A stretch of DNA of 64,000 bases from an uncultured Gammaproteobacteria bacterium (GTDB lineage: Bacteria > Patescibacteriota > Microgenomatia > Levybacterales > UBA12049): NCBI GenBank assembly GCA_964424775.1, contig CAYRJZ010000002.1, positions 73,736-137,735 of the forward strand, read 5' to 3'. Below, in pieces: positions 22,577 through 54,423 of the stretch (its first letter is position 1; every line of letters begins with the position of its first letter). Both the position numbers and the translations under genes were made by a program. A model generated the notes under the pieces. It was not told the DNA's origin, did no database searches, and saw only the letters and a list, made by a program, of their open reading frames with translations.

Positions 22577-23674
22577 ATGAAAGTTGGTATTGACGCTCGT
22601 TTTTGGAATGAAACAGGGGTTGGACGATACATTCGCAATCTTGTTTTGAATCTTCAAACTATTGATAAAAAAAATGAATATGTTCTTTTTGTTACTCCAA
22701 AGGACAAAGAAGCTGTTGAAAGTGTGCTCACTAACTCACATTTTCAAATAAAAGTTGTCAATATTCCCTGGCATTCATTCTCCGAACAGATACAACTGCC
22801 ACCTGCGATTAGCAAAGAAGACGTAGACCTCATGCATTTCCCTTATTTTGCTGTTCCTCTTTTTTATAAAAACCCATTTGTGGTTACTATTCATGATTTG
22901 ATCCTTCATCATTTTCCAACTGGTGAGGCATCAACCCTTCCAACAATTATGTACAGAGCAAAATTATTAGCATACAAATTTATCATTAAAAATGCTGCAA
23001 AACAGGCAGAGAGAGTAATTGTTGTTTCAGAAGCAACAAAAGATGAAGTCATTGACCACTTGAAGATACAGAAAGATAAAATTGATGTCATTTATGAAGG
23101 CTATGAACTTCCTAAAAAAACTTCCCTTTCTTTCGTTCTTAAAAAACCCTATTTTTTACATATTGGTAATGTCTATCCGCACAAAAACTCAAAAGTTCTT
23201 GTAGATGCTTTTGAAAGATTTTCGAAAGATACATATTTATACTTTGTCGGAAGGAGCGACTTTTTTACTGATAAATTGAAAAAGTATATAGATAAAAAGC
23301 AGATTCAAAATATTTCCTTTCTTCACAGGGTCAATGATAAGGAATTAAGCACAATGTATGCAGAAGCAAGTGCTGTTGTCATTCCCTCATTTATGGAGGG
23401 TTTTGGACTTCCTGCAATTGAATCTATGTCTCATCAAACTCCCGTTATAGCATCAGATATTCCATCTCTTCGAGAAATTACTGGTGGAAATGCTCTGTTT
23501 TTCAATCCTAACTCTCAACAGGAGTTAGAACAGAAAATGCAGCTTGTGTTGAAGTCAAAAAATGAATTAAAAGATATAACAACAAGCGCTCAAAAATATA
23601 TCGAGAAATATGATTGGAAAAAAATGGCTGAGCAAACACTTAAAATTTATGAAAGTAGCACTCGTATACGATAG
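22577..23674 (+). CDS. GT4 glycosyltransferase
   Basis: MKVGIDARFWNETGVGRY, FLHIGNVYPHKN, FMEGFGLPAIESMSHQTPVIAS. Confidence 0.8.
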   Translation: MKVGIDARFWNETGVGRYIRNLVLNLQTIDKKNEYVLFVTPKDKEAVESVLTNSHFQIKVVNIPWHSFSEQIQLPPAISKEDVDLMHFPYFAVPLFYKNPFVVTIHDLILHHFPTGEASTLPTIMYRAKLLAYKFIIKNAAKQAERVIVVSEATKDEVIDHLKIQKDKIDVIYEGYELPKKTSLSFVLKKPYFLHIGNVYPHKNSKVLVDAFERFSKDTYLYFVGRSDFFTDKLKKYIDKKQIQNISFLHRVNDKELSTMYAEASAVVIPSFMEGFGLPAIESMSHQTPVIASDIPSLREITGGNALFFNPNSQQELEQKMQLVLKSKNELKDITTSAQKYIEKYDWKKMAEQTLKIYESSTRIR

Positions 23675-31146: not shown

Positions 31147-31641
31147 ATGAATAAGAATTTACTTATTGGAGTTGGTGCAGTTGTATTACTTCTTCTTGGA
31201 CTAGGAGGATATTTTGTCATGTCCAATAGATCAGCTGAGCCAGTAGAACCAGTTGAAGAATCCCTTGAGAACGAAGCAATTTCAATCAAGCCTGAAGAAA
31301 TTGGTCTTGAGTTGGAAGCAACGCCAAATAAAAAGCAGGTAAAATTTATTATTAGTAAAGCAATAGGTATTACGGCTCTTGAGTATGAACTTTCTTATGA
31401 GGCTGATTCAACCGGAGGGACGGATGATGGTGATGGTGGAGGAAGAATTTCAAGAGGCGTAGCGGGAGAAGATGAACTCGATGGCACTGAAGAGTCATAT
31501 GAGTCAAAATTACTTGATCTAGGAAGTTGTTCAAGTGGAACATGCAGATACGATACAGGCGTTACTGATGTTCAATTACTTCTTAAAATTACAAAAGACG
31601 ATGGAAAAGTGTATGCGGTAGAAGATACGCTTGAACTCTAA
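31147..31641 (+). CDS. Hypothetical membrane-anchored protein with an acidic, Gly/Asp-rich exodomain
   Basis: N-terminal TM (LLIGVGAVVLLLLGLGGYFV); DDGDGGGRISRG. Confidence 0.35.
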   Translation: MNKNLLIGVGAVVLLLLGLGGYFVMSNRSAEPVEPVEESLENEAISIKPEEIGLELEATPNKKQVKFIISKAIGITALEYELSYEADSTGGTDDGDGGGRISRGVAGEDELDGTEESYESKLLDLGSCSSGTCRYDTGVTDVQLLLKITKDDGKVYAVEDTLEL

Positions 31642-31736
31642 GAACTCCTCAATTTTCACATTTATTTTCTTACATTTTCACACACTACTGCTTGTGTTCT
31701 AATTTTTCACGGACACTACTTCCCCTTTTCACAGGA

Positions 31737-31766
31737 TTGACATGGTTCAGTAAATGATGCAATATA
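31737..31766 (+). promoter_or_regulatory. Candidate mra promoter: -35 TTGACA (31737-31742), TG-extended -10 AATATA (31761-31766)
   Basis: Read directly. The spacer is 18 nt with TG at 31758-31759. Confidence 0.4.
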
Positions 31767-31772
31767 TATAAA

Positions 31773-31810
31773 AGTAGTGATAAGTAGTGAAGAGTAGTGA
31801 AATGTGTGAT
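31773..31810 (+). promoter_or_regulatory. Putative MraZ operator: three perfect AGTAGTGA direct repeats at exact 10-bp phasing, plus a degenerate fourth (TGTGTGAT)
   Basis: aaAGTAGTGAtaAGTAGTGAagAGTAGTGAaaTGTGTGAt, which is 50-87 bp upstream of the mraZ ATG and just downstream of the candidate -10. MraZ proteins bind 3x direct repeats upstream of mraZ in E. coli, B. subtilis and Mollicutes. Confidence 0.55.
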
Positions 31811-31859
31811 AGTATACAACTCATACGATTTCATTTGACCAATTGATCGTTAACAATTC

Positions 31860-32297
31860 ATGATTCTGGGACAAGTTGAAGGAAGAATTACAAAAAAACA
31901 TCAGATAGCCTTACCGAAAGTGTTTCGAGAAGAGATGGGAGATCAACTCATTGTAACAAAGGGAATAAATGAATACTTACAGGTGATCTCACAAAAAAAT
32001 TGGGAAGTATTATTGGAAGGTACAAGAGGAAAACCGTTTACAGACAAAGCAACACGGGAGTTACAAAGATATCTTTTTGGAAATGCGACAGAAATAACAC
32101 TTGATAATCAAGGAAGAATGGTACTCCCTGAGTATTTGGTGACATATGCAAAATTTCAGGAAGAGATCATTTTTATTGGAGTAGAGCGGTATGTAGAGAT
32201 GTGGGACAAAAGAAGTTACAAAGTATATGAGGAGAAAGTCTCAAAATCAGCTGAATTGTTAACTATTGATATTGGACATTCACAAGGACATGAATAA
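31860..32297 (+). CDS. mraZ: Transcriptional regulator MraZ
   Basis: Two SpoVT/AbrB-like halves (ITKKHQIALPKVFRE..., DNQGRMVLPEYLVTYAKF), about 145 aa, first gene of the dcw cluster. Confidence 0.85.
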   Translation: MILGQVEGRITKKHQIALPKVFREEMGDQLIVTKGINEYLQVISQKNWEVLLEGTRGKPFTDKATRELQRYLFGNATEITLDNQGRMVLPEYLVTYAKFQEEIIFIGVERYVEMWDKRSYKVYEEKVSKSAELLTIDIGHSQGHE

Positions 32298-33174
32298 TTA
32301 TCACACAAGCGTTCTTTTACAAGAAGTAATCGATTTTTTAAAAATCAAACCTGGGCATAAGTATATAGATGCTACGTTGGGTGGTGGTGGGCATACTGTA
32401 GAAATGTTACGACAAGGTGGAGATGTGTTGGGAATTGATGTTGATAGTGACGCTCATGCATATGTAGAATCACTTATTTCGTCAAGGAAAGAAGAGTTAA
32501 ATGGATCATTCAGAAGTGCTTATGGAAATTTCGAAAAAATTGATGAGATAGCACATCAGCATCACTTTATATCTGTCTCAGGTATCATTTTCGATTTGGG
32601 AGTATCAAGTCATCAATTTGATACACCTGAAAGAGGGTTTAGTTTTCAACCAGGTCCTCTTGATATGAGGATGGATGGTGAGCTAACTGTTACAGCAGCT
32701 GATCTCATAAATGGGCTAACACGAGTTGAGCTCATTGAACTCTTTGAGAAGTATGGGGAAGAGCCATTTGCACGAAAAATTGCAGGAAGTATCGCTGAGA
32801 GACGAATAAAATCACCGTTCAGAACAACAGAAGACTTAGCAGAGGTCATTAAACGAGCAGTTCCAAAGAGTGATGGTATTCATCCAGCAACACGGGTCTT
32901 TCAGGCCTTACGAATCGCTGTTAATGATGAGATGCATGTTCTAGAAAATGCTTTACCAAAAGCATTAAGGCTTCTTGAGAACGAAGGAAGATTGACTGTT
33001 ATATCTTTTCATTCTCTTGAAGACAGAATTGTGAAATATGCATTTGAAGCTTTTGAAAAAGCCGGTGAAGGAGAAATTATAACAAAAAAACCGATTATTC
33101 CTACACAAAAAGAACAAGAAGAAAATAGAAGAAGTAGAAGCGCAAAGCTTCGAGTCTTTGAAAGAAAAATATGA
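32290..33174 (+). CDS. rsmH: 16S rRNA (cytosine1402-N4)-methyltransferase RsmH (MraW)
   Basis: Start taken at ATG 32290 (MNNYHTSVLLQEVIDFL...DATLGGGGHT, the canonical RsmH N-terminus); GIIFDLGVSSHQFD. Confidence 0.9.
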   Translation: MNNYHTSVLLQEVIDFLKIKPGHKYIDATLGGGGHTVEMLRQGGDVLGIDVDSDAHAYVESLISSRKEELNGSFRSAYGNFEKIDEIAHQHHFISVSGIIFDLGVSSHQFDTPERGFSFQPGPLDMRMDGELTVTAADLINGLTRVELIELFEKYGEEPFARKIAGSIAERRIKSPFRTTEDLAEVIKRAVPKSDGIHPATRVFQALRIAVNDEMHVLENALPKALRLLENEGRLTVISFHSLEDRIVKYAFEAFEKAGEGEIITKKPIIPTQKEQEENRRSRSAKLRVFERKI

Positions 33175-33452
33175 AAAAACCATTATTAGTTGTCATGTTA
33201 AACGGATTTATTATTCTTTGCTTATCACTCGTGCAAGTAGTTGTTGCGAATAGTATCTCTACAACTGGAATTGAGCTTGGGAAAATTGAGAATGAAATAG
33301 CGGCATATAAAAAGAAAAATGCTGTTCTTCACGAACAGGTACTTATTTCATCATCTTTGACAAATATTGCTTCAGAGGCTTCTCGACTTGGTTTTGAAGA
33401 ATCAAAGTCTCAACTTGTTGTTGAGAGTCCTCTCCCCATTGCAAAAAGATGA
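33171..33452 (+). CDS. ftsL: Cell division protein FtsL-like (small bitopic coiled-coil protein)
   Basis: 93 aa with a single TM and a heptad region; it sits between rsmH and ftsI. Confidence 0.5.
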   Translation: MKKPLLVVMLNGFIILCLSLVQVVVANSISTTGIELGKIENEIAAYKKKNAVLHEQVLISSSLTNIASEASRLGFEESKSQLVVESPLPIAKR

Positions 33453-35143
33453 CAGATTGGAGATATCGTTCTGTACTACTTTTTTTCACTGTTCTCTTAT
33501 TATTTGTTACAGTGAGACTTTTTTACTGGCAAATTGTCAGAGCTTCTGAACTTGCATCAATTGGTCAGTCTCAGTATGGTCAAAATGTTAAACTCGTTCC
33601 TAAGAGAGGTGAGATTCGCACATCTGATGGATTTCCATTAGCATCAAATAAAGTTACCTATCTTGTTTTTGCCAATCCGAAGGAGATTAAGGAAAAAGAT
33701 AAAACCTCCCGACTCCTTGCACCAATTCTTCAAAAGGATGTAGCCTCAATTTCTGCTCTTTTAGACCTTAATAGATACTGGGTAGCTGTAGGAAGTAAAA
33801 TAAGTACTGTTCAGAAGGAAGAAGTTGAGAAGCTAGATTTACCTGGAATTGGGTTTGATGATCAATCGATTCGTTTTTATCCTGAAGCTTCAGTTGGTGC
33901 GAAATTACTCGGATTCGTTGGGAAAAATGAACTGGGTGATGATATCGGGCAATTTGGACTTGAAGGGTACTATGATAGACAACTAAGAGGAAAAGAAGGA
34001 GTAGCTAAGCAAATTCATGATGCTCTAGGAAGACCGATTCTTGCAAAACTGCATAATTCATCAGGTGAAATTGATGGACGAAACCTCAATTTACATATAG
34101 ATCGAGTTCTTCAGTTCGTTCTAGAAGATGAGTTAAAGACAGGAATTGAACAGTATGGTGCAGTAGGAGGGATGGCAGCGATGATGGATCCTAAAACTGG
34201 GGGGATATTAGCAATGGCTTCATTTCCTTCTTTTGATCCAGCCAAATATTACGAGCATTCAGCTGAGGAATTTAAAAATGCTTTTATAACTGATACGTAT
34301 GAACCTGGATCAACATTCAAACCTTTAGTGATGGCTGCTGCAATAAATGAAGGACTAGTCAAACCTGAAACTGTCTGTCCGAATTGTAATGGCCCCATTG
34401 AGATAGGGGGATACACGATTAAGACATGGAATGATAAATATCAGGAAAATCTCACCATGACACAGGCGATACAATACTCAGATAATACCGGGATGGTTTT
34501 TGTCGGACAAAAGTTAGGGTTGGACAGGATGCTGAATTATTTTGATAAATATGGACTTGGTAAAGCAACAGGAATTGACCTCCAGGGTGAAGTAACACCC
34601 TCGATAAGGCCGCGAAGTAATTGGTATCCAATTGATCTTGCAACATCGAGTTTTGGTCAGGGAATTTCCATTACACCAATTGAGTTACTCGCTGCTTTTT
34701 CTTCTCTTGCAAATAAAGGAGTGAGAATGGAGCCACATGTTGTCGCATCAGTCGAAACGCCTGAGGGAGAGGTCATAACAATTCCTCCAAAAAAGATAAA
34801 TCAACCAGTGAGTGAGAAGACAGCAAAAATAATGACAGAGATCCTGGTGAATGCAGTTGAAAAAGGGGAAGCAAAATGGGCAAAGCCTAAGGGGTATCGA
34901 ATTGCTGGAAAGACAGGTACTGCCCAAATTCCGGTTGAGGGGCATTATGATCCAAATCAGACTATTCCATCATTTATTGGGTTTGCTCCTGCTGATGATC
35001 CGAAATTTGTAATGCTTGTTGTTCTTGATAGACCGACTAAATCAATTTACGGGTCAGAGACAGCTGCTCCAATATTTTTTAGAATTGCAAAGAAAGCCCT
35101 CACTTATTACAACATTGCACCTACAGAAAGTTTGAGTGAGTAA
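33449..35143 (+). CDS. ftsI: Class B penicillin-binding protein / peptidoglycan D,D-transpeptidase FtsI
   Basis: N-terminal TM, dimerisation domain, and the transpeptidase motifs STFKP (SxxK), SDNTG (SxN) and KTGTA (KTG). Confidence 0.85.
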   Translation: MTDWRYRSVLLFFTVLLLFVTVRLFYWQIVRASELASIGQSQYGQNVKLVPKRGEIRTSDGFPLASNKVTYLVFANPKEIKEKDKTSRLLAPILQKDVASISALLDLNRYWVAVGSKISTVQKEEVEKLDLPGIGFDDQSIRFYPEASVGAKLLGFVGKNELGDDIGQFGLEGYYDRQLRGKEGVAKQIHDALGRPILAKLHNSSGEIDGRNLNLHIDRVLQFVLEDELKTGIEQYGAVGGMAAMMDPKTGGILAMASFPSFDPAKYYEHSAEEFKNAFITDTYEPGSTFKPLVMAAAINEGLVKPETVCPNCNGPIEIGGYTIKTWNDKYQENLTMTQAIQYSDNTGMVFVGQKLGLDRMLNYFDKYGLGKATGIDLQGEVTPSIRPRSNWYPIDLATSSFGQGISITPIELLAAFSSLANKGVRMEPHVVASVETPEGEVITIPPKKINQPVSEKTAKIMTEILVNAVEKGEAKWAKPKGYRIAGKTGTAQIPVEGHYDPNQTIPSFIGFAPADDPKFVMLVVLDRPTKSIYGSETAAPIFFRIAKKALTYYNIAPTESLSE

Positions 35144-35148
35144 AAAGA

Positions 35149-35481
35149 TTAACGAATTGTTGACCCAGGAGCTACTGGTTCAAGGGGAATAAGGGGGAGT
35201 GGTTTGTTTCCACCTTCTGCAGCAAGAATCATCCCTTCTGAGAATTCACCCATCATTTTTCTTGGTTCAAGATTAAGAACAAAAATAAAATTTTTGCCGA
35301 TAAGCTCATCTGGATCATACCAGGCTGCAATTCCTGAGAGGATATTCTTTTCGCCTTCCTCACCAAAATCTACCGTTAGTCTCAGTAACTTATCTGATCC
35401 TTCTTTTTTTTCACAGTTAATAACTCGACCTACCCGCAAATCTAGTTTTGCAAAATCTTCAAAAGCAATTTGATCTTTCAT
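35149..35481 (-). CDS. tRNA-binding domain protein (CsaA/EMAP-like OB fold)
   Basis: FAKLDLRVGRVINCEK...DKLLRLTVDFGEEGEKNILSGIA...FVLNLEPRKMMGEFSEGMILAA is the Myf/tRNA_bind domain. Confidence 0.65.
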   Translation of the reverse strand: MKDQIAFEDFAKLDLRVGRVINCEKKEGSDKLLRLTVDFGEEGEKNILSGIAAWYDPDELIGKNFIFVLNLEPRKMMGEFSEGMILAAEGGNKPLPLIPLEPVAPGSTIR

Positions 35482-36499: not shown

Positions 36500-37675
36500 A
36501 TGTGGCAAGATATTAAAAACATTTATCATCTAGGAAAAGCTTTTGGAGCAAATGTGCTCAATGGATATCCGGCAAAGTCATTAACAGTCATTGGGGTTAC
36601 CGGGACAGATGGGAAAACGACAACTGCCACTTTCATTTACAGTATACTTAAGGAGGCAGGTTTCAAGACTGCGCTTATCTCAACAGTTTCAGCAAAAATT
36701 GGGGATAAAGAATATGATACAGGCTTCCACGTCTCGACACCTGACTCTTTAGCACTTCAGTCTTACTTAAAAAGAGCAAAAAAGGATGGAGTAACTCATT
36801 TAGTACTTGAAGTGACATCTCATTCACTAGACCAACATAGGGTTTTTGGAATTCCATTTGCTGTTGGGGTACTCACCAACATTTCTCGTGAGCATCTCGA
36901 CTATCACAAGACAATGGAAAGATATATGTTAGCCAAAGCTCGCTTGTTAAAAAATTCTCGTATAGTTGTTCTGAATAAAGATGATGACAGTTACTCTTTT
37001 TATTCAGATCTTTTGAATGAAAAGAAAATTCTCACTTATTCTTTACATGATAAAAATTCATATACTCCTTCATCAGTTAACATCCATTCTTCTTTACCGG
37101 GTGATTTTAATACATATAATATGCTTGCAGCATATACAGCAACAAAAGCAATTGATATTGACGATAAGATTATCCTAAAAGCTCTTGAAAAAGCACTGTT
37201 GCCAGAAGGAAGATATGACGTTATCTACGATAAAGATTTTAAAATAATTGTTGACTTTGCACATACACCTCGCTCTATTGAACAAGTGCTCCAGACAGTG
37301 AAAGATAGTACCAAAGGACGAGTAATACATGTCTTTGGAAGTGCCGGTCAAAGAGATAAAGGAAAAAGATCACTGATGGGGAAAGCCTCAGCAAAATATG
37401 CTGATGTTATCATTCTTACATCAGAGGACCCGAGGGGAGAAACTGTAGATGAAATCAATAAAATGATAAGAAAAGGAATGAGTGGAAAAGAAAAAGTGCT
37501 TGAGATACCAGATCGAAGTGAGGCAATTCTCAAAGCAGTAACTGAAGCAAAAAAGGGAGATTGTGTCATAATTACAGGAAAAGGTCATGAAAAATCAATG
37601 AATTTTGGAAAAGGTGAAGAACAGTGGAGTGATCATGAGGCTGTTTTGAGCGCATTAAAGGAGAAGAAACTATGA
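36500..37675 (+). CDS. murE: Mur ligase, MurE-like (UDP-MurNAc-L-Ala-D-Glu:diamino acid ligase); lacks the usual N-terminal domain
   Basis: P-loop GVTGTDGKTTT, DFAHTP, GSAGQRDKGKRSLMG (the MurE D-R-D-x-x-K-R-x-x-MG motif). Only 391 aa. Confidence 0.55.
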   Translation: MWQDIKNIYHLGKAFGANVLNGYPAKSLTVIGVTGTDGKTTTATFIYSILKEAGFKTALISTVSAKIGDKEYDTGFHVSTPDSLALQSYLKRAKKDGVTHLVLEVTSHSLDQHRVFGIPFAVGVLTNISREHLDYHKTMERYMLAKARLLKNSRIVVLNKDDDSYSFYSDLLNEKKILTYSLHDKNSYTPSSVNIHSSLPGDFNTYNMLAAYTATKAIDIDDKIILKALEKALLPEGRYDVIYDKDFKIIVDFAHTPRSIEQVLQTVKDSTKGRVIHVFGSAGQRDKGKRSLMGKASAKYADVIILTSEDPRGETVDEINKMIRKGMSGKEKVLEIPDRSEAILKAVTEAKKGDCVIITGKGHEKSMNFGKGEEQWSDHEAVLSALKEKKL

Positions 37676-39093
37676 GTAAAGTTCGGTCAATTCATTTTGT
37701 CGGAATAAAAGGTGTAGGATTAACCCCGCTTGCTTTGATTGCGAAAGAAGCAGGAATTGAGGTAACAGGAAGTGATATTAATGAAGAATTTATAACTGAT
37801 TCCGCGTTGAAGAAAGTAGGTATAACGCCACTTGTCGGTTTTGATCCTGTCCATGTTCAAAATGTTGACATCGTGATCACCACGGGTGCACATGGTGGAT
37901 ATCAAAATCCAGAAGTTGTCGAGGCGAAGAGAAAAGGCATCCCTGTCTTAACGCGTGCGGAAGCTGTTGGAGAGTTTATGAAAGGCACGCTTTTTGGAAG
38001 AAGTTTTCGTGGGATCTCAGTTGCAGGGACACACGGGAAAACAACGACGACTGCCATGGTGATTACTATTTTGAAACAAGCAGGCATAGACCCATCTTAC
38101 CTTGTTGGAACAAGTGATATAGGTGGAGTTGATCTTCCAGGCCATTTTGGAAAGGGGAATTATTTTGTTGCTGAGGCTGATGAGTATGCTACAGAACCAC
38201 AATCAGATCATAAAGCAGCATTTTTATGGCATTATCCAGATATAGCCCTTTTTACCAATATAGAGCATGATCATCCCGATATTTATCCTGATATTCAATC
38301 AGTTGAAGAAGTCTTTTCCCAATTTACAGAACAAGTAAATGATACGATCATCGGCTGTGGAGATGACGAACGAGTCTATTCAATTTTAAAGAATAGTTCT
38401 AAGCGAACTATAACCTATGGTTTTTCACCCAAGAACGATTATGTCTTGGAGCGTGTCTCCGTCTCAGGGGATCAGACTTTTTTCCATGTCTCGTCAATGG
38501 GTGTTGATCTGGGTGAGTTCAGGATGAGGGTAATGGGAGATCATAATGCCTTAAATGCACTCGGTGCATTGATTGTCTGTCTTGAAGTAGGAGTTTCACT
38601 CGAAAAGATTCGAGACGGACTAAGTACCTTTAGAGGTACAAAGAGAAGACAGGAGTTTAAGGGAAAAATGAAAAATGGTGCAGATGTGTACGATGATTAT
38701 GCTCATCATCCGACAGAGATTAAAAAAACTCTTCATGCTCTTCGTCAACGGTACACGAAAGAGGAGATAGTCTGTGTTTTTCAACCACATACCTTTACAC
38801 GTACAAAAGCTCTTTATCAAGAATTCATTCATGCTTTCGATGATGCATCTAGACTTATTCTTACAGATATTTATGGATCTTTACGTGAAGAAAGGGATGA
38901 GAGTATCAGTTCACAAAGACTGGCTGATGATATCGCACGGGTGAAAAAAAATGTTCAGTATGTTCCCCTTACCGAAGTCGCTTCAGTCATAAATAATAGC
39001 AAATTGGATCATACAACAGTCGTTATTTTTATGGGTGCTGGGGATGTTTATAAGGAGATAGAACACCTCGAAATGAGAGAAAGAAAAGAGTAA
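37672..39093 (+). CDS. murC: UDP-N-acetylmuramate--L-alanine ligase MurC
   Basis: N-terminal IHFVGIKGVGLTPLA (the MurC Rossmann signature HFxGIGGxGMS), P-loop GTHGKTTTT, and ADEYA...TNIEHDHPD. Confidence 0.8.
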   Translation: MSKVRSIHFVGIKGVGLTPLALIAKEAGIEVTGSDINEEFITDSALKKVGITPLVGFDPVHVQNVDIVITTGAHGGYQNPEVVEAKRKGIPVLTRAEAVGEFMKGTLFGRSFRGISVAGTHGKTTTTAMVITILKQAGIDPSYLVGTSDIGGVDLPGHFGKGNYFVAEADEYATEPQSDHKAAFLWHYPDIALFTNIEHDHPDIYPDIQSVEEVFSQFTEQVNDTIIGCGDDERVYSILKNSSKRTITYGFSPKNDYVLERVSVSGDQTFFHVSSMGVDLGEFRMRVMGDHNALNALGALIVCLEVGVSLEKIRDGLSTFRGTKRRQEFKGKMKNGADVYDDYAHHPTEIKKTLHALRQRYTKEEIVCVFQPHTFTRTKALYQEFIHAFDDASRLILTDIYGSLREERDESISSQRLADDIARVKKNVQYVPLTEVASVINNSKLDHTTVVIFMGAGDVYKEIEHLEMRERKE

Positions 39094-39134
39094 GATAATT
39101 TGTGAAAACTCGAGTTTGACGGTATAATGCATCA

Positions 39135-40466
39135 ATGATTGAAGAAAAATTTATAGTCAGAGGTGGAAAAAGTCTACACGGATCTGTCTCAGTATCCGGG
39201 GCAAAAAATGTTGTCCTCAAAGCGTATGTTGCAGCGTGTCTGACAGATGAAGAAGTCATCCTCCATAACATTCCTCTTATCTCAGACCTTCGCATCATGG
39301 GGGAGATTATTGAGGATCTGGGTGGCACTGTTACCATTACTGATCACACGGTAAAAATTCGTATAGAGAAATTTAAAAAGAGTGATATCACTCTTGATCA
39401 GGCGTCACATATTCGTACCTCATCTATGTTCCTGGCCCCACTACTTATTCGAAATAAAGAAGCGATCATCCCCAATCCAGGCGGGTGTAGGCTTGGTGCG
39501 CGACCAATAGATAGAACAATTGATGGATTGAGACAAATGGGCGCTGATATCAATTATCTCAGTGATGATGGTTATTTTCACGCAAAAGCTGAAAAACTAC
39601 ACGGTGTGACATATCGATTTGATAAAAACACTCATACAGGAACTGAGACTATGATAATTGCGGCAGTTCGCGCTGAAGGAAAGACAGTTCTGGAGAATGC
39701 TGCTGAGGAACCTGAGATTGATGAGTTGATCGATCTTTTGAATGCGATGGGAGCAAAGGTTAAAAGAACAGCACAGAGAGTTATTGAGATCGAAGGTGTG
39801 GATAGGCTACATGGTGCAGAAGTCACCATCAAGCCAGATAGAAATGAAGTTGTTACTTTTGCAATTGCCGCAGTTGTAACAAGAGGAGATATTACCGTAA
39901 AAGGAGCAAGTAAGAAAGAGTTAGAGGCATTCCATACAAAATTTGAAGAGGTTGGAGCCGGAGTTGAGGAAGTCGCTGAGGGAATGCGATTTTTCTATAA
40001 AGGTCCGATAAAGGCAACAGAGATAACAACTGCGCCATACCCAGGTTTTATGACTGACTGGCAGGCTCCATGGGCTGTTCTGATGACACAGGCTGAAGGG
40101 ACGTCGGTAATACATGAAACAGTTTTTGAAAATAAATTACAGTATGTAACTGATTTAAAAAAGATGGGTGCGAAAGCAGATCTATTTAATCCTCCTGTTG
40201 AAAATAAAGAAGAAGTTTATAACTTTAATTTAGATGATGATCGTCCAGACTATTATCATGCTGTACGAATTCACGGTCCTAAAAAGCTTCACAACGCAAT
40301 TGTAACAATGCATGATATTAGAGCTGGTGCAGCTGTCCTCTTAGCCGCTCTTGCTGCAACTGGTGAGACAACAATTCATGGAATTCATCTTATAGAGCGT
40401 GGATACGAAAAAGTTGATGAACGTCTTCGCTCTCTTGGTGCTGATATCCAAAAAGTAACACAATAA
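39135..40466 (+). CDS. murA: UDP-N-acetylglucosamine 1-carboxyvinyltransferase MurA
   Basis: FIVRGGKSLHGSVSVSGAKN, the active-site Cys loop PGGCRLGARPID, 443 aa. Confidence 0.9.
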   Translation: MIEEKFIVRGGKSLHGSVSVSGAKNVVLKAYVAACLTDEEVILHNIPLISDLRIMGEIIEDLGGTVTITDHTVKIRIEKFKKSDITLDQASHIRTSSMFLAPLLIRNKEAIIPNPGGCRLGARPIDRTIDGLRQMGADINYLSDDGYFHAKAEKLHGVTYRFDKNTHTGTETMIIAAVRAEGKTVLENAAEEPEIDELIDLLNAMGAKVKRTAQRVIEIEGVDRLHGAEVTIKPDRNEVVTFAIAAVVTRGDITVKGASKKELEAFHTKFEEVGAGVEEVAEGMRFFYKGPIKATEITTAPYPGFMTDWQAPWAVLMTQAEGTSVIHETVFENKLQYVTDLKKMGAKADLFNPPVENKEEVYNFNLDDDRPDYYHAVRIHGPKKLHNAIVTMHDIRAGAAVLLAALAATGETTIHGIHLIERGYEKVDERLRSLGADIQKVTQ

Positions 40467-40467
40467 T

Positions 40468-41223
40468 ATGGCAAATAAATCCTCTATATCAGCAGTAATT
40501 CTAGCAGCAGGGAAAGGAAAAAGAATGAATATGCTGGAATCAAATAAAGTGACTGCCAATCTTTTAGATCGGCCCATTGTCACGCATATTGTTTCATTTA
40601 TGGAGGAGTTGGGACTTGGTGCAATTATCGTAGTTGTCGGACATGCAAAAGAGTCTGTTATGGACGCATTGGCAAATAGACCAGTTATATTTACCGAACA
40701 AAAAGAACAGCTAGGAACAGGACACGCGTTATCATGCGCATTAGAAGTGCTTCCAGAAAATATTACTGATCTTTTTGTCGTGTATGGAGATGATGCTGTC
40801 TTTTATAACAAAAATAATAAAGAAATTATGGAATCACTTTTTACCAAACACGCCGAATCAGGAGCGGCAATAACATTTTTAACTATTGAACAGGATAATC
40901 CTCAGGGACTTGGGAGAATTGTGAGAAGTAATGAGGGAAAAGTGAGTGCAATAGTTGAGGAAAAGGATGCATCTGAGGAACAGAAAAGAATAACAGAGAT
41001 CAATCCTGGATGCTTCTTATTTAATGTTGAATTTGTCAAAAAATATCTTCCTCTGGTTGAAAAAAGTCCAGCGACAGGAGAGTATTATCTAACAAGTCTT
41101 ATTGATATAGCTATTGAGCATGAAGAGTTAGTTGAAACGGTTCGTGGTGGGAAATTGGCTTGGAGAGGTGTTAATACGCCAGAAGAATTAGAAGAAGCAG
41201 AAAAAATGATGAAGTCTTTTTAA
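40468..41223 (+). CDS. GlmU-like sugar-1-phosphate uridylyltransferase domain protein (no LbH acetyltransferase domain)
   Basis: AVILAAGKGKRM and QLGTGHAL match the GlmU N-domain motifs. Only 251 aa. Confidence 0.6.
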   Translation: MANKSSISAVILAAGKGKRMNMLESNKVTANLLDRPIVTHIVSFMEELGLGAIIVVVGHAKESVMDALANRPVIFTEQKEQLGTGHALSCALEVLPENITDLFVVYGDDAVFYNKNNKEIMESLFTKHAESGAAITFLTIEQDNPQGLGRIVRSNEGKVSAIVEEKDASEEQKRITEINPGCFLFNVEFVKKYLPLVEKSPATGEYYLTSLIDIAIEHEELVETVRGGKLAWRGVNTPEELEEAEKMMKSF

Positions 41224-53874: not shown

Positions 53875-54423
53875 ATGGAAAATGGTAATCGTGTGATCAT
53901 TAAATCATGGCATGACTTGACTCGAGACGAACTGGACGAGATGAATGAAAGTCATGCACGAGAATGGAATATCTCATCAATGAATCCAGATTATCATGCA
54001 GAAAATATATTTTTTTTATTGAAAGACAGTGAAAAAAATATTCTCGCCCAAGGTCAACTCGTTCCAATTAAAGGTGTCGTTTTTAATGGTGAGACATTTG
54101 ATATTTTTGGAATTGGCGGAATTATTGCCAATAAAAAAGGAGAAGGGTATGGAAGACAAATAATGAATGCGATTAAGGATTATTTAACATCACATAATAC
54201 AACAGGAGTTGGATTTACTGGATTTTCAGGATTTTATGAAAAGTGTGGATTTAATGTCGATCGGGATGCAATAAAGCGTTTTATCTATATGACTGATGGT
54301 AAAGAAGTTGTGAATACAGAGAGTGATAGAGTATGTTTTTTGGATGCTGAGGATAATTTTATGGAGAAGGTAATTCAGAACCAACACGAATTAGTTTATT
54401 TACCACGTACTCCTGACTGGTAA
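53875..54423 (+). CDS. GNAT-family acetyltransferase
   Basis: IANKKGEGYGRQIMNAIKDYL (motif A). Confidence 0.5.
   Translation: MENGNRVIIKSWHDLTRDELDEMNESHAREWNISSMNPDYHAENIFFLLKDSEKNILAQGQLVPIKGVVFNGETFDIFGIGGIIANKKGEGYGRQIMNAIKDYLTSHNTTGVGFTGFSGFYEKCGFNVDRDAIKRFIYMTDGKEVVNTESDRVCFLDAEDNFMEKVIQNQHELVYLPRTPDW

Follow-up and report, generated by a model that had tools for sequence, protein, structure and literature searches.

Three phased GTAGTGA boxes form a candidate MraZ operator at the mraZ locus of an uncultivated Levybacteria-like Patescibacterium

Gene content, repeat array and promoter of the mraZ locus

The window, by which we mean the whole 64 kb stretch of DNA analyzed here, carries a mraZ gene that is separated from the preceding hypothetical gene (31147–31641) by a 218-bp gap (Table 1). 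Judged from its sequence, the open reading frame at 31860–32297 is unambiguously an MraZ heading a dcw-type operon: its product matches the MraZ chains deposited in the PDB (1n0e, 9qlr, 9sx6 and 9qlg; E = 8e-18 to 3e-17, residues 1–125/132), and its alignment to the Mycoplasma genitalium protein (9qlr, E = 1.8e-17) is gapless, so that the same residue numbering applies to both. The second DXXXR motif (Asp82...Arg86) is present as D82-N-Q-G-R86, and Asp82 and Arg86 are invariant in the alignment of MraZ homologs. The first (Asp11...Arg15) is lost, with threonine at position 11, glutamine at position 15 and Lys13 kept; Gln15 recurs in 118 of the 120 MraZ homologs retrieved. The reading frames of mraZ, rsmH, the ftsL-like gene and the PBP gene overlap or abut and are presumably co-transcribed, and a convergent gene on the minus strand (35149–35481) closes the operon. 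This last gene encodes a tRNA-binding domain and marks the point at which the dcw-type cluster is split; a second block on the plus strand (36500–41223) holds two Mur ligases, MurA and a nucleotidyltransferase.

Table 1. Positions of the predicted regulatory elements and genes at the mraZ locus (window coordinates)
Feature	Position	Strand	Basis or remark
Upstream module, not MraZ-type	31665–31732	+	alignment of 27 loci
Module part TTTTCTTACA	31665–31674	+	
Module part CACTACTGCTTGTGTT	31683–31698	+	
Module part TTTTCACGGACACTAC	31704–31719	+	identical in the window and distant relatives L017, L018, L087, L115
Module part TTTTCAC	31726–31732	+	
-35 hexamer TTGACA, mra promoter	31737–31742	+	read directly; TTGAC upstream of the array in 121/128 loci
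-10 hexamer CAATAT (predicted), 17-nt spacer	31760–31765	+	family profile anchored on -35
MraZ box 1, AGTAGTGA (predicted)	31773–31780	+	conserved 7-mer GTAGTGA at 31774–31780
MraZ box 2, AGTAGTGA (predicted)	31783–31790	+	repeat and conservation
MraZ box 3, AGTAGTGA (predicted)	31793–31800	+	repeat and conservation
mraZ, predicted binder, 145 aa	31860–32297	+	Pfam PF02381, E = 1.3e-23, two stretches
DNA-reading loop 1, T11-K12-K13-H14-Q15	codons 31890–31904	+	
DNA-reading loop 2, D82-N83-Q84-G85-R86	codons 32103–32117	+	
rsmH	ATG 32290 (or TTG 32266) to 33174	+	Pfam Methyltransf_5, E = 2e-97
ftsL-like, FtsL-sized ORF	33171–33452	+	
Class B PBP/FtsI-like	33449–35143	+	PBP_dimer plus Transpeptidase

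Within the gap, 60–87 nt upstream of mraZ, the octamer AGTAGTGA occurs three times on the plus strand in exact 10-bp steps, confirming the three perfect copies one helical turn apart described in a first-pass annotation of this DNA; the segment from 31770 to 31809 reads AAAAGTAGTGATAAGTAGTGAAGAGTAGTGAAATGTGTGA, and Tandem Repeats Finder assigns the array a period of 10 with 3.3 copies over 31770–31802. All three copies of the octamer present on either strand of the window lie in the array, vs. a chance expectation of 1.8, a count that is not significant by itself; what is rare is their arrangement. The array unit is the sole 7- or 8-mer of the window found three times at exact 9–11 bp spacing, and of 500 windows simulated under a first-order Markov model, only 2 contained an 8-mer triple at that spacing. 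Outside the array neither GTAG-N6-GTAG nor a second array was found on either strand of the 64 kb. The degenerate fourth copy that had been proposed (ATGTGTGA, 31802–31809) does not hold up, matching at 5 of 8 bases with a 9-bp offset, and unit 4 is unconserved in every group of related loci. One other phased 6-mer triple exists in the window, GGATTT at 9-bp phase (54211–54234); it was rejected as a regulatory array, as it lies inside an open reading frame (53875–54423) where it encodes GFTGFSGFY and is a coding peptide repeat.

As proposed, the array lies between the mra promoter and mraZ; it begins 7 nt after the predicted -10 hexamer. As for the promoter itself, annotated as TTGACA/TG-AATATA, the -35 hexamer stands, while the alignment of relatives moves the -10 hexamer to CAATAT, at a 17-nt spacing. 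CAATAT is a weak match to TATAAT, and a consensus promoter scan made no call for the TTGACA/CAATAT pair, its sole plus-strand match overlapping the start codon. Because the consensus scan missed the promoter, family conservation was used instead, and the resulting profile contains a conserved CAnAAT at +23 to +28 from the -35 hexamer (CAAAAT, CATTAT or CAGAAT in relatives). Transcription is predicted to start at about 31772–31774, at the 5' edge of box 1, which would place the array at about +1 to +28. TTGAC and the G of box 1 are 35–39 nt apart in 110 of 121 loci, with a mode of 37 that is also the value in the window, whereas between the last box and the ATG there are anywhere from 5 to 86 nt. 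Given this near-fixed distance on one side and the variable one on the other, the array is anchored to the promoter and not to the start codon.

Related mraZ loci and co-variation of the boxes with MraZ residues

Related mraZ loci were collected from species-representative genomes (62) and from metagenomes (80), with MraZ identities of 31–68%, and removal of duplicates left 128 distinct loci, the window counted. By its homologs and related loci, the organism falls among the Levybacteria-like Patescibacteria. Nearly all 128 loci share a single layout, in which TTGACA, 17 nt, CAnAAT and about 7 nt are followed by two to three boxes in 10-bp phase. In 43 of the 61 genome loci the pattern GT[AG]G-N6-GT[AG]G-N6-GT[AG]G lies in the 150 nt preceding mraZ, and no further copy was present on either strand of 354,508 bp; at least two exact phased cores are found in 57 of the 61, the other four having one degenerate box. 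Every close relative found carries the array, so that the absence which the first-pass annotation had named as refuting its reading does not occur: L001, L002, L012, L063 and L065–L067 each carry three GTAGTGA-type boxes with diverged spacers, and the contig of L064 ends inside the array. Many public metagenome-assembled genome records that clearly have Levybacteria-type mraZ loci (L004, L007–L009, L012, L015 and others) are titled 'uncultured Gammaproteobacteria', 'Methylomirabilota' or 'Sulfotelmatobacter', which are probably placeholder or mis-assigned names.

What is conserved among the relatives is a 7-mer, GTAGTGA, followed by a variable 3-nt spacer. In the group of loci that share Gln15 and Gln84 with the window (n=17), the 7-mer is 71–100% conserved and the spacers vary; TAGT and GA of box 1 reach 94–100% and 88–100%, respectively, and GTAGTG of unit 3 stands at 100%. 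The octamer that had been put forward as the recognition sequence of the lineage is thus to be trimmed to GTAGTGA, the three copies and the 3-nt spacers being retained. The suggestion that the GTG of the octamer corresponds to the core of known MraZ boxes has to be given up, as it is in the wrong register: the homolog of GTG(G/T) is GTAG (31774–31777 and its two repeats), and the GTG within AGTAGTGA sits in the 3' portion of the box, a portion that varies with MraZ residue 84; most relatives lack this GTG, their boxes reading GTAGGAA. A canonical GTG(G/T) core is accordingly not found at the array, whose core is the variant GTAG, paired with the replacement of Arg15 by Gln.

This pairing holds across the collection. 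Loci encoding a Gln15 MraZ have GTAG boxes in 107 of 107 scorable cases, the window included, and those encoding an Arg15 MraZ have GTGG boxes in 20 of 20; counted by box, there are 298 Gln15/A and 46 Arg15/G combinations, with 2 odd boxes. Whole units can differ by one base (AAAGTAGGAA vs. AAAGTGGGAA; AAAGTAGTCC vs. AAAGTGGTCC in L123), and the register of the comparison is therefore unambiguous. The varying base is box position 3, the one contacted by Arg15 in the M. genitalium structure. A change from arginine to glutamine together with one from G to A is a textbook side-chain/base recognition pairing. Parsimony on a neighbor-joining MraZ tree with the DNA loops masked gives 5 switches at residue 15 (bootstrap range 3–9), and on a neighbor-joining RsmH tree 7 (bootstrap 5–10), vs. 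12–16 with shuffled tips; these counts rest on crude trees of single short proteins and are indicative and possibly inflated, and switches that look independent would also arise if mraZ and its promoter were transferred together.

A second co-variation concerns residue 84. TGA at box positions 5–7 is found exclusively with Gln84, namely in the window, in 16 relatives and in the Arg15/Gln84 locus L054; it is present in 34 of 44 boxes paired with Gln15/Gln84 and in 0 of about 250 paired with Lys84. In L054, whose boxes read GTGGTGA, both scored boxes have it, and the third, ATGGTGA, likewise ends in TGA. Lys84 goes with GAA or TCn and Arg84 with GAA or GAG, whereas the boxes of Asn84 proteins (Anaerolineae) have AGA or AAA at these positions. 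It is plausible, by pseudo-symmetry with Lys13, that residue 84 contacts the 3' side of the box; since M. genitalium MraZ has Ala84, such a contact would be absent from the structure of that protein.

Two further features of the boxes were observed. L008, compared with L006, is the sole locus in which Lys13 is replaced (by Gln); in two of its three boxes (ATAGTGA and TTAGTGA) the initial G is missing, a single case that would fit recognition of the 5' end by Lys13. In the Gln15/Lys84 loci (n=84; e.g., L017, L022 and L042), box 2 is almost always GTAGGAA and boxes 1 and 3 are often GTAGTCn, which hints at position-specific roles of the boxes within these arrays.

The operator reading and its alternatives

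MraZ operators have been described in several bacteria. In Bacillus subtilis, P_mra contains three GTGG[A/T]G boxes separated by 4 nt each, a triple that is unique in the genome, and these repeats are needed for MraZ autorepression of mraZ-rsmH-ftsL-pbpB (bioRxiv 10.1101/2022.02.09.479790). The window resembles this system in its three direct repeats with a 10-bp period, its mra promoter and its operon content, but differs in having GTAGTGA and Gln15 in place of GTGG[A/T]G, both DXXXR motifs and an essential Arg15; the GTGGTGA boxes of the Arg15/Gln84 locus L054 resemble the B. subtilis box. The P_mra of Burkholderia cenocepacia has four 7-nt repeats with 3-nt spacers that lie downstream of the -10 hexamer and overlap the transcription start, as in Escherichia coli, and a fragment of this promoter is bound by MraZ (PMC7761207). 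The window shares with these two species the 7-nt repeats and 3-nt spacers downstream of the -10 hexamer, but not their proteobacterial GTG/TGGGN-type cores and canonical Arg15. For E. coli, the P_mra operator with its MraZ repeats was reportedly described by Eraso et al. in 2014.

The M. genitalium operator consists of four boxes one helical turn apart, with a GTG(T/G) core and a transcription start inside box 1; adjacent subunits of the MraZ oligomer bind it cooperatively, and a reporter is repressed (PMC12957436). In the cryo-EM structures (9qlr, 9qlg and 9sx6), Arg15 contacts G25:C25' at what corresponds to box position 3, Arg86 position 4 and Lys13 the T of position 2, and alanine at Lys13, Arg15 or Arg86 abolishes binding (PMC12957436). 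The Arg15-to-Ala change inactivates the MraZ proteins of E. coli and B. subtilis too, and an MraZ without the first DXXXR motif might on that account be expected not to bind DNA. Helical-turn spacing of the boxes, the gapless protein alignment and the retention of Lys13, Asp82 and Arg86 are common to M. genitalium and the window, which differ in that the former has four boxes, a conserved 4-nt core and Ala84 and the latter three boxes with 7 conserved nucleotides. Between the two proteins, Asp11 is replaced by Thr, and Arg15 by Gln, the latter change being paired with G-to-A at the contacted base.

The array of close relatives, the phased layout in nearly all 128 loci and the co-variation with MraZ all speak for the candidate operator proposed in the first-pass annotation. 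We consider it highly probable that the three GTAGTGA boxes (31774–31800) are the operator of the MraZ encoded downstream, which would repress mraZ-rsmH-ftsL-PBP, autorepression being the most likely function of such a site. From these comparisons we infer that MraZ binds here, which of its residues touch which bases, where transcription starts and in which direction the regulation goes, and a mechanism can be proposed by analogy with M. genitalium. Adjacent subunits of the MraZ oligomer would each set a 'cradle' motif into a major groove, all of them on one face of the double helix, so that three of them occupy the three boxes, one per helical turn. Lys13 and Arg86 would read the invariant T and G at box positions 2 and 4, Gln15, in place of the canonical Arg15, the A that replaces the canonical G at position 3, and Gln84 the 3' TGA. 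With the boxes overlapping the predicted start region, MraZ bound there would cover about +1 to +28 and block access of RNA polymerase, resulting in negative autoregulation.

MraZ could instead bind the array and activate the operon, or both activate and repress it. MraZ is reportedly an activator in M. gallisepticum, and the conserved module upstream of the -35 hexamer shows that this promoter receives other regulatory input. Nonetheless, boxes about 7 nt after the -10 hexamer and at roughly +1 to +28 have the geometry of a repressor site, the same position is occupied in E. coli, B. cenocepacia and M. genitalium, where MraZ represses the reporter, and the repeats of B. subtilis are required for repression, all of which makes activation improbable here.

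The upstream module also bears on the possibility that the repeats bind a different protein, or are a generic promoter-proximal element, with the adjacency of mraZ being incidental. In Levybacteria-like loci the module, about 100 nt in extent and located upstream of the -35 hexamer, has the order TTTTCTTACA, CnCTACATnTTGT and ACACTAC, the last of these 16–17 nt before TTGACA, and can also be written as TTTCTTACA ... CTACATnTTGT ... ACACTAC. CACTA[CGT] is found upstream in 76 of 119 loci vs. 2% in the background, CTACAT in 55 of 119 vs. 0.4%, and TTTTCAC or GTGAAAA in 37 of 119 vs. 0.4%. The intergenic region holds further conserved motifs (CACTAC, TTTTCAC and TTTCTTACA) that are evidently not meant for MraZ, and in this respect another ligand for the boxes is conceivable. 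The upstream module is, however, the same in the Arg15 and Gln15 lineages, and its motifs serve as an internal control that does not follow residues 15 and 84, whereas the boxes follow both without exception in 127 loci; triple arrays, moreover, occur exclusively upstream of mraZ. This co-variation of the boxes with residues through which MraZ contacts DNA ties the site to MraZ and not to another factor, and we regard the alternative as very improbable. By the same reasoning the module, which does not track residue 15, probably serves another factor. Tentatively, and as part of a joint reading with the recognition code discussed below, it may be where a second cell-division regulator of these bacteria acts.

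Several other assignments within this region were considered and set aside. Because the mraZ intergenic region holds 5 of the window's 17 GTAGTG hexamers, the inverted copies ACACTACT further upstream (31682 and 31713; the reverse complement of AGTAGTGT) could be taken for distal MraZ boxes, but Arg15 lineages keep CACTA[CT] and do not change to CCAC. WhiA, whose motif is GACAC (PMC3781837, PMC10243135), is a weak lead as the factor acting on the module, with GACAC in only 36 of 119 loci, and no WhiA was found among the five window ORFs of 280–336 aa that were scanned. A likeness of TTTTCACA to a DnaA box, noted by eye, was set aside because the final A is not conserved in relatives, and a second upstream promoter (CTTACA ... 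TACAT) because its 11-nt spacing does not fit sigma-70. TTTTCAC itself occurs four times in the mraZ intergenic region (31653, 31675, 31704 and 31726) and 24 times window-wide, its complement included; in relatives, it or GTGAAAA is very often found within the -35/-10 spacer in either orientation (e.g., L017, L013 and L045).

An action of the repeats in the mRNA leader, through structure, stability or translation and not as DNA, is harder still to sustain. The boxes would be transcribed if transcription starts at about 31773, and the last box, GTAGGAA in many relatives, is there 5–25 nt from the ATG, where its AGGA is a possible ribosome-binding site. Against this, shuffled sequence folds as well as the predicted leader does (z=0.16), the leader has no Rfam match, the boxes stand at a fixed distance from the promoter but at a highly variable one from the ATG, and the boxes of the window contain no Shine-Dalgarno-like sequence, an element that is rare in this genome (4 of the 26 genes checked in the window); a role in RNA would also leave the co-variation with DNA-contacting MraZ residues unexplained. 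A functionless tandem repeat born of chance or slippage, for which one might cite the AT-rich intergenic DNA, where short repeats are common, and the octamer count of 3 vs. 1.8 expected, runs against the scarcity of phased triples in the simulations (2 of 500) and is effectively refuted by the comparative data, in which more than 100 species-level relatives have kept the position, the phase and the core of the array while their spacers have diverged.

A possible recognition code, its implications, and the mraZ leader

With the GTAGTGA array taken as the MraZ operator, a broader reading suggests itself, to which we give slightly less than even weight: residue 15 may read box position 3 and residue 84 positions 5–7, residue and base having switched together several times, with a second regulator acting on the upstream module. 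Were this so, the MraZ code would pair Arg with G and Gln with A at position 3, and at the 3' side Gln84 with TGA, Lys84 with GAA/TCn, Asn84 with AGA and Ala84 with no conserved sequence (M. genitalium). The 'essential' arginine of the first DXXXR motif would then be a determinant of specificity and not an obligatory DNA anchor. A small set of point mutants and probes would allow a direct test of such a residue-to-base code.

Few bacterial transcription factors are as widely conserved as MraZ, but its sites have been characterized in only a handful of cultivated species, all of them with GTG(G/T) cores and an essential Arg15. While MraZ operators are already known as a kind, what is new at this locus is the GTAG core combined with the loss of the 'highly conserved, essential' Arg15. 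In the searchable literature, we found no mention of a GTAG core with loss of Arg15 or of MraZ regulation in Patescibacteria. The locus would thus extend MraZ autoregulation to uncultivated members of this group, with the recognition sequence GTAGTGA in three copies and 3-nt spacers, and would represent a natural specificity swap, in which Arg15-to-Gln accompanies G-to-A at the very base contacted in the 2026 cryo-EM structure, joined by the pair at residue 84. In practical terms, it may become possible to predict MraZ regulons in Patescibacteria, whose genomes would yield nothing when searched with the canonical GTGG motif.

The mraZ leader differs from the 5' regions of other genes in the window. 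Besides the scarcity of Shine-Dalgarno-like sequences, a TATAAT-like hexamer is seen 6–12 nt before many ATGs (start codons at 22577, 24765, 39135, 45851, 47990 and others), and leaderless mRNAs therefore seem to be common here. An exception to this pattern is mraZ, whose predicted leader measures about 87 nt. The sequence GATCGTTAACAATTC (31845–31859) abuts the mraZ ATG on its 5' side and contains no Shine-Dalgarno sequence; it is identical in L001, L002, L012 and L063–L067, while the rest of the leader has diverged in these loci, and it may be a translation-initiation element or a second regulatory element.
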